From the NCBI RefSeq assembly GCF_013167455.1, contig NZ_CP038328.1: DNA of 64,000 nt. The stretch is one strand, 5' to 3'. This stretch comes from Escherichia coli O157:H7. GTDB lineage: Bacteria; Pseudomonadota; Gammaproteobacteria; Enterobacterales; Enterobacteriaceae. This document shows positions 35,859-51,662 of the stretch, in pieces. The notes below the pieces were generated by a model. The model saw only the letters and a list, made by a program, of their open reading frames with translations. It made no database searches and was not told the DNA's origin. How positions within the stretch are numbered: the first letter of the stretch is position 1; each line of letters begins with the position of its first letter. The position numbers and the translations under genes are program-made.

Positions 35859-37076
35859 TTACAGCTGATGATAACCAGAAAGGAAACGCGCGAACTTGCT
35901 CAACGACAGCTCGATATCATCGACACGCGGTAGCGTGACAATGCGGAAGTGATCCGGCCACGGCCAGTTGAATGCCGTCCCTTGCACCAACAGAACTTTT
36001 TCCTGCAACAGGAAATCCAGCACCATTTTCTGATCGTCGTGAATGTTAAAGCGTTTGGCGTCGATTTTCGGGAACATGTACAGCGCACCACAAGGTTTCA
36101 CGCAGGAAACGCCCGGAATATCGTTGATCAATTCCCACGCGCGGTTACGCTGCTCATAAAGACGACCGCCAGGGGTAATAAATTCACTGATGCTCTGATA
36201 ACCACCCAGCGCGGTCTGAATGGCGTGTTGCGCAGGAACGTTAGCACACAGGCGCATTGAAGCCAGCATTTCCAGACCTTCGATGTAGCCTTTGGCGTGT
36301 TTTTTCGGCCCGTTCAACACCATCCACCCCTGACGGAAGCCTGCAACGCGGTACGTTTTCGACAGTCCATTAAAGGTAATGGTCAGCAGGTCAGGTGCCA
36401 GCGGCGCAATTGAGTGATGCTCAGCGTCGTCGTAGAGAATTTTGTCATAAATTTCATCGGCGAAGATAATGAGATTATGCTGACGTGCAATCTCCACAAT
36501 CTCCATTAAAAGCTCTTTGGAATATACCGCGCCGGTTGGGTTATTTGGGTTGATAATAACGATCCCACGCGTACGAGGCGTAATTTTAGCGCGAATATCA
36601 TCGAGGTCCGGGAACCAGTCAGAGGATTCATCGCAAAGATAATGCACCGCTTTACCGCTGGAAAGCGAAACCGCCGCGGTCCATAGTGGGTAATCTGGTG
36701 CAGGAACCAACATTTCGTCCCCGCTGTTCAGCAATGCCTGCATTGCCTGAACGATAAGCTCCGATACACCATTGCCGATGTAAATATCTTCCACGGTAAC
36801 ATCACGCATGCCACGAGCCTGATAGTGCTGCATGATGGCTTTACGCGCGGAGTAAAGACCTTTGGAATCGCAATACCCTTGAGCGGTAGGCAGGTTGCGT
36901 ATCACGTCAACGAGGATTTCATCTGGCGCGTCAAAACCGAACGGGGCTGGGTTGCCGATGTTCAGTTTCAGTACCTTGTTACCTTCTTCTTCCAGGCGTT
37001 TTGCTTCTTTCAGCACCGGACCACGGATGTCATAACAGACATTCTCTAATTTGCTGGATTTTTCAATGGGGGACAT
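35859..37076 (-). CDS. alaA: Glutamate-pyruvate aminotransferase AlaA (YfbQ)
   Basis: 405 aa; class I aminotransferase with PLP-lysine region NGLSKTYRVAGFRQGW. Confidence 0.95.
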   Translation of the reverse strand: MSPIEKSSKLENVCYDIRGPVLKEAKRLEEEGNKVLKLNIGNPAPFGFDAPDEILVDVIRNLPTAQGYCDSKGLYSARKAIMQHYQARGMRDVTVEDIYIGNGVSELIVQAMQALLNSGDEMLVPAPDYPLWTAAVSLSSGKAVHYLCDESSDWFPDLDDIRAKITPRTRGIVIINPNNPTGAVYSKELLMEIVEIARQHNLIIFADEIYDKILYDDAEHHSIAPLAPDLLTITFNGLSKTYRVAGFRQGWMVLNGPKKHAKGYIEGLEMLASMRLCANVPAQHAIQTALGGYQSISEFITPGGRLYEQRNRAWELINDIPGVSCVKPCGALYMFPKIDAKRFNIHDDQKMVLDFLLQEKVLLVQGTAFNWPWPDHFRIVTLPRVDDIELSLSKFARFLSGYHQL

Positions 37077-37992
37077 GAATCTTGACCTTTTTTGCTGTTA
37101 TCGCCACTCCCTGCCGTGGAAGTCAGCTTAGAACAATGTACTCCCCCAGGACGGTGTTTTGAAGGTCTGCAGAATAAGATTTTGCCAGAGGGGAAGGCTC
37201 GATTGTGCTGTTAATAACTTAATAATGACAAAATAATGAGGTGCATATGCTTTACATGCAATGTTATATAGTGAATTGTTCTGATTCTTAATTGTAAGTC
37301 TGGTTTTTTTATCTGTAAGATAATTGTGTGAAAATGCCTCATTTAAGAATTCACTAATGAAACGCGATGATGATATTTCCGCATTACGGAGAGTTTAACA
37401 GCGTGATGATTTCCGAGGTGTCGCAATGGGGGCAAGGTGTGAAACTATTGTTAAGCGGAATTAATGAATGAGGATGATGCTAATTAATTATTATTTAATA
37501 TTCAAAAAGGTTTTGATGTGCTTATTAATAATAGAAGATTACTTTGCCTAACATAACATAACTTTGCATCAGATAATTCGCAATGACCCTTATAAATAAA
37601 AGGTTTTTGGGGTAAAATGCTCGCATAAATGACGGATCCCTGCTCTTGATGCCGCCTCACCATTGCTGTTTGTACGTGTTCGCGTATGACCAGCGATGCT
37701 GCACGAGAGTGGAACAAGGACTCACATTTACATTTATACAAACACGCGCATGTCATAAATAGAAAAGAGTGAGTAACTTAATAGATATGCGATCCCTGAA
37801 GATATATTCTGTGATCTACTTCAGGCATTATAACGGAACAATGTGAGTCGCTTTTTTAGTGCAACTCATATGCATTTTTACTTTCGTCCGGGTTCCGGAT
37901 GAAACTGCCAGGGAGGCACATTACAAATGGAATTGCTTGTTTGTGTGTGCACAGCATTAACCAGCTCAGTATGAGCCGCCAGTAAGTGATAA

Positions 37993-38934
<942 letters not shown>

Positions 38935-38979
38935 TCGACGGACGATAGATAATTCCTGAGACAATAGTGTAAAAAACGA

Positions 38980-39017
38980 GCCGCTGGGGGTGTTTTAAAC
39001 CCCAGCGGCTTTTTTTT
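38980..39017 (+). terminator. Intrinsic terminator after lrhA
   Basis: gccgctgggg-tgttttaaa-ccccagcggc followed by T8. Confidence 0.85.
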
Positions 39018-39564
39018 AGTAAAGAACCTTCTTCACATCGTGCAGAACGTACAAAACTGTTCATTTTTCAATCACCAGAGATTCACGCCCCGTACGCACA
39101 AATAATCGCCTGAAAAAAATCACCTGCTACAATGATGTTAAAAAATACGTAAATTTGTTGCTGCGTTTTTGTTATGGAATGACAAAAGCGTGTCACAGAT
39201 CAAGAAAATACTCTCTTTTGGGGGGAGGAATCGACACAAATTCCTGTCAAAATAGACCCGTATTTTTTCCATTGCTTCACAACGGACACGATTCAACAAC
39301 ATCTAATTATCCTGGAGTCGTCAAGGATCTGGGGTGAAAGGGCATTAAATGCTAATGGTGTTGATATTATGTAAACTAATGTGAAGAAACTTTTGTTAAA
39401 GTTGACAAAAGGTTATAGAAAGGAGTAAAAGACCACATCAATTAGCTGTATAAAAGAATTTCTACAGTGATTGTAAGGTTTTTTTTATTCCTCCCCATGA
39501 ATCGATGTGGCGTCCATCTGCCGTGAAGAGCAGTGAATCTGGCGCTACTTTTGATGAGTAAGCA

Positions 39565-40008
39565 ATGAGTATGTCAACATCCACTGAAGTCATCGCTCAT
39601 CACTGGGCATTCGCTATCTTTCTTATCGTTGCCATTGGCCTATGTTGCCTGATGCTGGTAGGCGGTTGGTTTTTAGGCGGTCGCGCACGCGCGAGGTCGA
39701 AAAACGTGCCGTTTGAATCCGGTATCGACTCGGTCGGCTCCGCCCGCTTACGCCTGTCCGCCAAGTTTTATCTGGTGGCCATGTTCTTCGTTATCTTCGA
39801 CGTTGAAGCGCTGTATCTGTTCGCATGGTCAACCTCTATCCGCGAAAGCGGCTGGGTAGGCTTTGTGGAAGCTGCAATTTTTATTTTTGTGTTACTGGCA
39901 GGTCTGGTTTATCTGGTGCGTATTGGCGCGCTGGACTGGACGCCCGCGCGTTCACGCCGCGAGCGTATGAACCCGGAAACGAACAGTATCGCTAATCGTC
40001 AACGCTAA
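39565..40008 (+). CDS. nuoA: NADH:quinone oxidoreductase subunit A
   Basis: 147 aa, three TM helices; first gene of a 13-gene nuo cluster. Confidence 0.96.
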
Positions 40009-40023
40009 CCGCGAGGCATTAAG

Positions 40024-40686
40024 ATGGATTATACGCTCACCCGCATAGATCCCAACGGTGAGAACGACCGTTACCCCCTGCAAAAGCAGGAGATCGTAAC
40101 CGACCCTCTGGAGCAAGAAGTTAACAAAAACGTGTTTATGGGCAAGCTCAATGACATGGTTAACTGGGGTCGTAAAAACTCAATTTGGCCGTATAACTTC
40201 GGTCTTTCCTGCTGTTACGTTGAGATGGTGACTTCGTTTACCGCGGTGCATGACGTGGCGCGTTTTGGCGCAGAAGTATTGCGTGCTTCGCCGCGTCAGG
40301 CTGACCTGATGGTGGTTGCAGGAACCTGCTTTACCAAAATGGCACCGGTTATTCAGCGTCTGTATGACCAGATGCTGGAACCAAAATGGGTTATCTCAAT
40401 GGGTGCCTGTGCCAACTCTGGTGGTATGTACGATATTTATTCCGTTGTGCAGGGCGTCGATAAATTCATCCCGGTTGATGTGTATATCCCGGGCTGCCCG
40501 CCGCGTCCTGAAGCGTACATGCAGGCACTGATGCTGTTGCAGGAATCTATCGGCAAAGAACGTCGTCCGCTCTCCTGGGTGGTTGGCGATCAGGGCGTTT
40601 ATCGCGCCAATATGCAATCAGAGCGCGAACGCAAGCGCGGTGAACGCATTGCCGTAACCAACCTGCGTACACCTGACGAGATTTAA
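40024..40686 (+). CDS. nuoB: NADH:quinone oxidoreductase subunit B (N2 Fe-S cluster)
   Basis: 220 aa; cluster-ligand motifs CCYVEM and GCPP. Confidence 0.97.
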
Positions 40687-44419: not shown

Positions 44420-44471
44420 CCGAATTTCGATTAACGCTCAGTCTCTGACTGAGAAAACTGGAAGCATGCTA

Positions 44472-51432: not shown

Positions 51433-51662
51433 GTTGTTGGCTGAGTGAATATACCCGGCGTTGCGCCGGGTCTGTGAACTAAGAATAAATTTTAGGTAAC
51501 TGTTCCTGAAGTACAGGCGTCATCGGCGAAGTCAGACCGGATACCGCCAGCGCACAGCAACCGGAGCGTACTTAAGTACGTGAGGATTGCGAGCACTGCC
51601 GGGATTCGGGCTGGCGAGTGAGATAGCCTGAGCAGGAGTAAATATAAGGGACATACTTAGCT

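Follow-up and report, generated by a model that had tools for sequence, protein, structure and literature searches.

The respiratory chain of Escherichia coli has complex I as its main energy-conserving entry point, and expression of this complex is set in the spacer between lrhA and nuoA. Which elements of this spacer could do so? The question was addressed in a 64,000-nucleotide stretch of DNA from E. coli O157:H7 (the window, to whose numbering all positions refer), in which the region of interest extends for 547 bp from the end of the lrhA terminator to the nuoA start codon (39018-39564). Summary accounts of the K-12 operon report that nuo expression is responsive to O2 and nitrate as well as to carbon source and growth phase. 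Later summaries of the original studies (Bongaerts 1995, Wackwitz 1999) describe anaerobic repression by ArcA and nitrate activation by NarL, and name FNR and IHF as weak repressors; Fis is summarized as an activator in early exponential phase that binds at multiple sites. A preliminary description of the O157:H7 region, made from the letters alone, had expected several promoters and operator sites upstream of nuoA.

We conclude with high confidence that the region is the cis-regulatory region of nuoA-N (NADH dehydrogenase I) and that it is essentially identical to that of K-12. This control region has long been studied; for a genome scan, the expectation was a correct inference about a locus dissected since 1995 and not a discovery.

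Results

Boundaries and composition of the lrhA-nuoA spacer

Annotation of a 100%-identical O157:H7 record and of MG1655 confirmed that the region lies between lrhA and nuoA, directly 5' of nuoA-N, and that the operon has the 13 genes anticipated by the preliminary description, whose figure of about 550 bp for the gap also agrees with a terminator that ends at 39017 and a nuoA frame that begins at 39565. The 3' end of lrhA carries the GC-rich hairpin and U run of a Rho-independent terminator. Specifically, inverted repeat I1 forms a 12-bp GC stem with a 10-nt loop followed by U8 (dG -28.9 kcal/mol, z = -6.2, 0 of 200 shuffles as stable), and its stem covaries between genera in the alignment described below. 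A simple terminator scan did not pick up this hairpin, because only loops of 3 to 8 nt were scanned.

GC content is 38% in the region and 52% across the window. Among the 48 same-strand spacers of the window, with a median length of 61 bp, none is longer than the full 630-bp lrhA-nuoA spacer, and among all spacers there it ranks second in size. The AT-rich tracts and short palindromes that had first drawn comment are present, but no more often than in dinucleotide-preserving shuffles, as the 547 bp hold 6 perfect 6-nt inverted repeats (4.2±2.5 in shuffles) and 6 A/T runs of at least 5 nt (4.4±1.6 in shuffles). Neither feature exceeds chance, and neither has evidential weight; the special status of the region is evident from conservation and published experiments instead.

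The spacer is 100% identical to that of strain PV15-279, and of 5426 complete E. coli genomes, 5423 have it as a single copy. It matches K-12 MG1655 at 621 of 630 bases without indels, and eight of the nine SNPs lie within the unconserved segment 39024-39093. The remaining SNP, at the last base of the -10 element (39431, G versus A in K-12), is the sole difference inside a conserved block. All binding and transcription start site (TSS) data used below come from K-12 and were mapped by the relation window = 2442659 - (NC_000913.2 coordinate). Coordinates of the features are collected in Table 1.

Table 1. Features of the lrhA-nuoA spacer and its flanks (window coordinates; a dot marks features without a strand)
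Feature	Position	Strand	Basis and remarks
lrhA	37996-38934	+	annotation; alaA (-) neighbor
lrhA intrinsic terminator	38970-39017	+	A-tract, GC stem, then U8; upstream boundary of the region
Unconstrained spacer after terminator	39018-39135 (118 bp)	.	most columns <50% identical, 79 sequences
Distal ArcA-P site "nuoA2"	39136-39178	+	-301..-259 from main TSS; verbatim ArcA ChIP site, Park 2013 supplement
Near-invariant block AATGACAAAAGCGTGTCACAGATCAAGAAAATACTCTC	39179-39215	+	-258..-222; conservation at least 95%; FNR-like site and NarL-type heptamer
Invariant blocks GGGGGGAGGAATC and TTCCTGTCAAAATAGAC	39220-39232 and 39241-39257	.	-217..-180; conservation
Upstream promoter zone, candidate	39260-39317	+	anaerobic sigma-70 peak; includes Cra-like block ACGGACACGATTCAAC
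Cra-like block ACGGACACGATTCAAC	39282-39297	.	-155..-140; conservation 0.99; best Cra match in spacer
Fis-like site GGGCATTAAATGCTA	39340-39354	.	-97..-83; holds palindrome GCATTAAATGC; conservation 0.80
Proximal ArcA-P site "nuoA1"	39358-39388	+	-79..-49; verbatim ArcA ChIP site, Park 2013 supplement
Conserved, proximal ArcA/CpxR site to TSS	39372-39440	.	alignment, 79 sequences
Main sigma-70 promoter	39387-39440	+	A/T-rich upstream stretch, -35, 18-bp spacer, -10, TSS pair
nuoA leader, 128 nt	39437-39564	+	5' hairpin, U8, CCUCCCC, UGAAUCGAU, helix 2, hairpin 3, weak SD, AUG
Leader 5'-terminal hairpin	39439-39450 / 39463-39473	+	predicted fold; starts at +3, 2 nt from mapped 5' end
Conserved, much of leader	39477-39560	.	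alignment, 79 sequences
Leader U8 run; CCUCCCC; UGAAUCGAU	39479-39486; 39490-39496; 39498-39506	+	
Leader helix 2	39507-39514 / 39541-39548	+	encloses hairpin 3
Leader hairpin 3	39518-39522 / 39528-39533	+	RNAalifold
Candidate RyhB pairing region	39531-39576	+	across SD and start codon; core AAGCAAUG / CAUUGCUU, with AAGCAAUG at 39558-39565
nuoA, operon gene 1	39565-40008	+	ORF and annotation; ATG at 39565

Conservation and block geometry across Enterobacteriaceae

NuoA-anchored loci were taken from 80 Enterobacteriaceae genome records, all of which have lrhA upstream, and 78 other Enterobacteriaceae were aligned with the window (79 sequences, about 30 genera). The median spacer length is 629 bp, most species fall within 623-634 bp, and GC content is about 38%. 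Near-invariant blocks, at least 85-95% identical to the window, run from -301 to -30. The spacings between blocks are 60 bp (74/79 sequences), 47 bp (77/79), 39±1 bp, and 118±1 bp to the -35 element, in spite of linkers of differing sequence; within the leader, spacing is less strict (84-93 bp). Because the block spacings are fixed in 79 species though the linkers vary, the distal sites probably reach the weak promoter described below through DNA bending or looping.

Blocks that extend for 40-60 bp with at least 95% identity exceed the usual length of a single operator, and two ORFs, one of 60 aa on the plus strand (39155-39337) and one of 54 aa on the minus strand (39138-39302), span the conserved blocks, as they might if conservation marked an independent gene within the spacer, for a small protein or sRNA, and not operators. 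We regard such a gene as highly improbable, since each ORF stays intact in just 1-3 of the 79 species, no codon periodicity is seen among the substitutions, Rfam returns no match even at E<=1, and the K-12 5'-RACE-seq list has no TSS between those of nuoA and lrhA. In addition, rigid block spacing with variable linkers is the behavior of a protein-DNA architecture, and the ArcA and FNR ChIP peaks fall on conserved blocks.

Main promoter and a candidate upstream promoter

The nuoA TSSs of the K-12 5'-RACE-seq list (NC_000913.2 positions 2403222 and 2403219) map to A39437 (major, 4218 reads, UTR of 128 nt) and A39440 (1744 reads, UTR of 125 nt), and that list has no further TSS between this pair and the lrhA TSS. 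TSS mapping, which the preliminary description had named as a check, thus yields a dominant pair of starts. Upstream of them stand a -35 element TTGACA (39402-39407), an 18-bp spacer, and a -10 element TAAAAG (39426-39431; TAAAAA in K-12), in a core promoter block that is almost invariant in the 79-species alignment. Genomic SELEX with RpoD had reported a "constitutive promoter" TTGACA-18-TAAAAA upstream of K-12 nuoA, and a K-12 sigma-70 ChIP-seq peak maps to 39428 and is favored aerobically (2886 versus 373). A simple sigma-70 consensus scan of the region returned no promoter and so missed the known one. Together, the mapped K-12 data demonstrate main starts at A39437 and A39440, served by a consensus -35 that an 18-bp spacer separates from a weak -10 (TAAAAG/A). 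A perfect -35 combined with a poor -10 and a long spacer would make this promoter dependent on upstream factors. The repeat TTTTGTTA..TGACAAAAG occurs at 39164-39190 and, 223 bp away, at 39387-39414, with both arms conserved only in the promoter copy; it is probably an A/T-rich upstream element plus -35, not an operator pair.

A second K-12 sigma-70 ChIP-seq peak (NC_000913.2 position 2403389, window 39270) is favored anaerobically (1576 versus 2485). In the mapped K-12 data, RNA polymerase occupancy therefore moves from the main promoter in air to about 160 bp upstream without oxygen, which suggests either a second promoter or a trapped complex. Offsets in the ArcA table of Park 2013 imply, by back-calculation, a pair of database TSSs separated by 173 nt (one near 39316, the other near 39489); neither is among the TSSs of the K-12 5'-RACE-seq list, where a single cluster appears. 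A second promoter is thus suggested by the ChIP peak and, indirectly, by the back-calculation. The forecast of several promoters accords with two sigma-70 peaks of opposite oxygen dependence (39428 and 39270) but not with the one TSS cluster.

ArcA and CpxR sites

Two K-12 ArcA ChIP sites were found verbatim in the window (Table 1), and both combine in vivo occupancy with the TGTTA-type repeats in 10-11 bp phase that define ArcA-P operators. The distal site has three TGTTA-type direct repeats at spacings of 11 and 22 bp, and within it ATGTTAAAAAA and TTGTTGC are kept in at least 85-95% of the 79 species; the direct-repeat cores of the proximal site lie at 39359-39363, 39370-39374, and 39380-39384. 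A consensus scan counted 4 ArcA-like repeat pairs in the region versus 0.99 in shuffles, and nuo is derepressed 2.7-fold in an arcA mutant (Park 2013). From the mapped K-12 data, we conclude that ArcA-P occupies both direct-repeat sites.

A CpxR-like GTAAA-N5-GTGAA motif (GTAAACTAATGTGAA, 39371-39385; 1 match versus 0.09 expected) overlaps the proximal ArcA site, and CpxR, an envelope-stress regulator, has been reported to bind and repress the nuo promoter. With a reduced quinone pool, ArcA-P would repress from the proximal site, which shares bases with the CpxR site and borders the A/T-rich stretch by the -35. E. coli genomes at 90-95% identity number 1043, and two of these were aligned (WP4-S17-ESBL-03 and CREC-U1) to examine a divergent allele. 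The allele has 13 substitutions in 39344-39391, and all 7 that fall inside the proximal ArcA site miss its 15 repeat-core positions (hypergeometric estimate, p ~0.004).

FNR, NarL, Fis, IHF, and H-NS

The near-invariant block next to the distal ArcA site contains a K-12 FNR ChIP peak (NC_000913.2 position 2403450, window 39209, about -228) that is marked "+" in all five columns of Table S5 of the source. An FNR-like site at 39190-39203, aligned by eye, has a perfect right half (ATCAA) and as a whole matches at only 7/10 positions; the consensus scan found no FNR match at <=2 mismatches in the region. The same K-12 work (Table S9) reports FNR binding at nuo without an FNR-dependent change in expression. 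Mapped to the window, these data show FNR on the invariant block near -228 with no measurable effect on expression. In a published comparison, the DNA upstream of nuo in Yersinia is reported to have no candidate sites for Fnr, ArcA, or NarP.

Exact NarL heptamers (TACYYMT) occur at 39421-39427 and 39554-39560, both on the minus strand (2 versus 0.42 expected), and TACTCCY at 39209-39215, kept in most genera, is a putative NarL site by its sequence. Fis-like sites number 8 on both strands versus 1.4 in shuffles; the one at 39340-39354 matches the Fis consensus GNNYAWWWWWTRNNC with 1 mismatch and may be one of the published Fis sites. The IHF consensus had no match in the region at normal stringency, an anaerobic K-12 IHF ChIP-chip table has no peak there, and the consensus scan gave no CRP, PdhR, or Fur matches. 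An aerobic K-12 H-NS ChIP region spans 36148-39406, that is, AT-rich DNA up to the -35. The motif scans that had been suggested for this region gave more matches than expected by chance for ArcA, Fis, and NarL and returned nothing for FNR and IHF. The wider expectation of multiple regulators holds, with ArcA, FNR, and Cra ChIP binding, CpxR binding, and reported NarL, IHF, and Fis control in K-12. Rather than a single promoter free of regulator motifs, two sigma-70 peaks and ArcA and FNR ChIP sites were found.

Extensive H-NS binding could be taken to mean that most of the spacer is passive, H-NS-coated, AT-rich filler and that only the promoter and the ArcA/CpxR operator (about 39358-39440) matter, a view with which the single 5'-RACE-seq TSS cluster, FNR binding without an expression effect, the unconserved 39018-39135, and the chance frequency of palindromes and A/T runs would all agree. 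This is nonetheless very unlikely. Across 79 species, conservation of the blocks from -301 to -140 equals that of the core promoter, and their spacing is fixed to ±1 bp; the distal ArcA site, the FNR peak, and the second sigma-70 peak all lie in the upstream part; and spacer length itself is kept.

Cra-like blocks and blocks without a matching factor

The published Cra motif (gcTGAAtCGaTTCAgc / RSTGAAWCSNTHHW) has its two best matches in the spacer at 39282-39297 (19/26 weighted) and 39496-39511 (18/26), where a score >=18 occurs 37 times in the 64-kb window. Both matches are at least 91% conserved. The reverse complement of the first holds a TGAATCG core, and the second has TGAATCG in the opposite orientation, with TGAATCGAT (39498-39506) forming a perfect Cra left half-site plus center. 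Cra ChIP-exo binding has been reported "upstream of nuoA-N", and Cra is needed for full expression on acetate; judged by sequence, Cra may use the conserved TGAATCG cores at 39289-39295 (minus strand) and 39498-39504.

Two further blocks, with cores GGGGGAGGAAT (39221-39231, a G-run block aligned as GGGGGAGGAATC at 39221-39232) and CCTGTCAAAATA (39243-39254), keep fixed spacing to their neighbors. None of the ArcA, FNR, NarL, IHF, Fis, CpxR, CRP, PdhR, or Fur consensus sequences fits 39220-39257.

Predicted structure of the nuoA leader RNA

RNAalifold was run on 81 leaders, and the predicted elements are listed in Table 1. Helix 2 and hairpin 3 together have 98.8% of cells paired versus <=51% in slid controls, with 3 pairs showing double changes; for helix 2 alone, 98.6% of cells are paired, and GC->AU and CG->UA double changes occur in 14-20 sequences. 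The stem of hairpin 3 is invariant while its first three loop bases vary freely, so the stem itself offers no covariation. The 5' hairpin is predicted in most genera from differing sequence (75% paired versus 21-45% in slid controls, 10 pairs with double changes); it both starts near the 5' end and is kept in evolution, as is expected of 5'-terminal stem-loops. Over the whole leader, the covariance-model alignment has 88% of cells paired versus 21-45% in slid controls, with compensatory change at 13 pairs, and model R1 of the leader gives one match per locus (113-165 bits). Folded as a single sequence, the leader is no more stable than its shuffles (z = -0.57), so support for the leader structure is comparative. 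Rfam 15 gave nothing above chance in 37000-40200, not even at E<=1; the only match in the operon is the nuoG motif (RF01748), at 44422-44464 and separate from the leader.

Conservation of 39477-39560 might also be wholly at the DNA level, reflecting Cra, NarL, or IHF operators downstream of +1 with incidental RNA helices, and this is partly possible by way of the Cra-like half-site at 39498-39506; the invariance of hairpin 3 and the unremarkable single-sequence fold would fit as well. Such a reading leaves the compensatory changes unexplained, however. Helix 2 stays paired through double changes far above its slid controls, the stem of hairpin 3 is constant next to a varying loop, and the 5' hairpin changes sequence between genera yet still pairs. 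We therefore consider the DNA-only reading unlikely, although a good deal less so than an embedded gene, and favor a structured leader RNA.

The leader may in addition be a target of RyhB, as nuo is among the RyhB-repressed operons. RNAduplex gave -23.6 kcal/mol for the verified RyhB sequence and the leader versus -18.5±3.0 for shuffles, a marginal difference (p ~0.05).

Rejected candidates

Four other candidates were examined and set aside. The segments GGGGAGGAAT (39222-39231) and AUUCCUCCCC (39487-39496) are exact reverse complements and both are conserved; as a long-range RNA pairing they show no compensation in 79 species, and no known transcript covers both. The 60-aa and 54-aa ORFs and a 9-codon upstream ORF (39497-39526) do not have maintained reading frames. 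A sigma-54 promoter candidate at 39175-39190 (TGGAAT-N-AAGCG) lacks conservation of one G in its -24 GG, and the symmetric positions of the palindrome TGACA-N6-TGTCA (39180-39195) are not co-conserved as they should be in a dimer operator.

Discussion

The spacings, kept despite free linkers, suggest that the regulators form one nucleoprotein assembly of fixed geometry. Distal ArcA, FNR, NarL, Cra, and probably Fis sites would be held in fixed helical register and presumably act by bending or looping, while H-NS would coat the AT-rich DNA. The leader would add a post-transcriptional layer, in which the predicted 5' hairpin likely protects the mRNA, a covarying two-helix element precedes the AUG by 17-58 nt, and a RyhB site may cover the start codon.

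To a locus already known, the comparative analysis adds a base-resolution map of constraint, with about 118 bp free behind the terminator and about 300 bp of fixed geometry upstream of the promoter. The leader structure and the two invariant DNA blocks without a matched factor are apparently undescribed. We put forward tentatively, while leaning slightly against it, the proposal that they constitute two undescribed layers of control: a family-wide structured leader, in which the 5' hairpin and the two-helix element at +71..+112 are flanked by invariant CCUCCCCAUGAAUCGAU, and the invariant blocks at 39221-39231 and 39243-39254, locked at 60/47/39/118 bp into a rigid assembly from -301 to -30. 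If this is true, the leader could act on translation or on stability, for instance as an element that docks or antagonizes RyhB/Hfq or a protein, and the locked blocks would point either to a DNA-binding factor yet to be named or to an architecture in which looping is obligatory. An effect of C4-dicarboxylates on nuo has reportedly been described. A leader RNA lacking in Rfam, together with the invariant blocks, could explain such historically unassigned inputs.

Among known systems, the K-12 nuoA-N region is the same locus, with a 630-bp spacer (Bongaerts et al. 1995 Mol Microbiol 16:521; Wackwitz et al. 1999 Mol Gen Genet 262:876; Zhang et al. 2004). Across the nine SNPs that separate K-12 from O157:H7, the TSS, the -35, both ArcA sites, the FNR block, and the Cra-like and CpxR-like motifs are identical. 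The nuo promoter of Salmonella typhimurium (Archer & Elliott 1995 J Bacteriol 177:2335) lies in the orthologous spacer, and in S. enterica subsp. arizonae (L016) a spacer of 624 bp keeps all conserved blocks although some 30% of positions have changed, chiefly in the linkers and close to the terminator. The nuoA-N operon of Pseudomonas putida (PMC6072106) is alike in its long upstream region and in a 5' end 104 nt from nuoA, compared with the 128-nt leader here; it features a second, distal promoter and four footprinted, activating Fis sites. It has no sequence relationship to the enterobacterial locus, has other neighbors and regulators (an RpoS effect), and shows no lrhA synteny.

At the RNA level, the nuoG motif is likewise a conserved cis-regulatory RNA of enterobacteria in the same operon, but it is located about 5 kb downstream, upstream of nuoG, whereas the nuoA leader matches no Rfam family. 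A 5'-terminal stem-loop in the 5' UTR of ompA mRNA is said to stabilize that transcript. In contrast to ompA-type stem-loops, the nuoA hairpin, known here by prediction, is AU-rich and weak (about -8 kcal/mol), with 75% of cells paired; like them, it begins 2 nt from the 5' end and keeps its pairing across genera.

Sequence variation in the nuoA control region

Within E. coli, the promoter-proximal regulatory DNA of nuo is found as two distinct alleles, which are distinguished at 39344-39391 and also at 39456-39469 and 38971-39052. The divergent allele was described from an alignment of 2 of the 1043 E. coli genomes that make up the 90-95% identity band; in the two aligned genomes, 13 substitutions are clustered in the 48 bp of 39344-39391, and the segment is identical otherwise. 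Several states of this allele are common to Escherichia albertii, and the O157/K-12 allele resembles Citrobacter. Together, these sequence comparisons suggest either that the polymorphism is old or that the segment was imported.

The final base of the −10 hexamer (39431) also varies. O157:H7 carries G (TAAAAG), as do most of the E. coli alleles examined, and A (TAAAAA) is present in K-12, Citrobacter koseri, Citrobacter youngae, and Salmonella enterica subsp. arizonae; neither version carries the usual T.

H-NS binding and the upstream alaA/lrhA spacer

In published aerobic H-NS ChIP-chip data for K-12, a single bound region of 3.3 kb maps to 36148-39406. It runs from the 5' end of alaA across the alaA/lrhA divergent spacer and lrhA into the DNA upstream of nuo, as far as the −35 hexamer. 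The divergent spacer (37077-37995; 919 bp, 38.5% GC) exceeds the nuoA spacer in length. The RpoD SELEX paper cites it as a long, multifactor spacer, and it is listed with a strong anaerobic sigma-70 peak.

Other elements in the operon and window

The nuoL-nuoM gap (51433-51662), at 230 bp, is unusually long for within-operon spacing. Elsewhere, the cvpA-dedD spacer (531 bp) is the third largest in the window because it is filled by RF02564 elements. Downstream of nuo, a frameshifted pseudogene adjoins an ElaD/SseL-family deubiquitinase gene.

Features within and outside the nuo operon
Feature	Position	Location	Detail
nuoG cis-regulatory RNA motif RF01748	44422-44464	within operon, upstream of nuoG	Rfam, 50.3 bits
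GC hairpin CCCGGCG TTG CGCCGGG	about 51454-51470	nuoL-nuoM gap	part of 20-nt imperfect inverted repeat
Three tandem naRNA4/REP-type elements, RF02564	13405-13657	cvpA-dedD spacer	72-83 bits
Hypothetical-protein pseudogene, frameshifted	55329-55945 (record 3168266-3168882)	downstream of nuo operon	

Predicted RyhB pairing at the nuoA start codon

A candidate duplex at 39531-39576 pairs the core of the small RNA RyhB (CAUUGCUU) with AAGCAAUG, spanning the nuoA start codon. Its predicted energy is marginal (−23.6 kcal/mol versus −18.5 ± 3.0 for shuffles); such pairing over the start would be consistent with the reported repression of nuo by RyhB.
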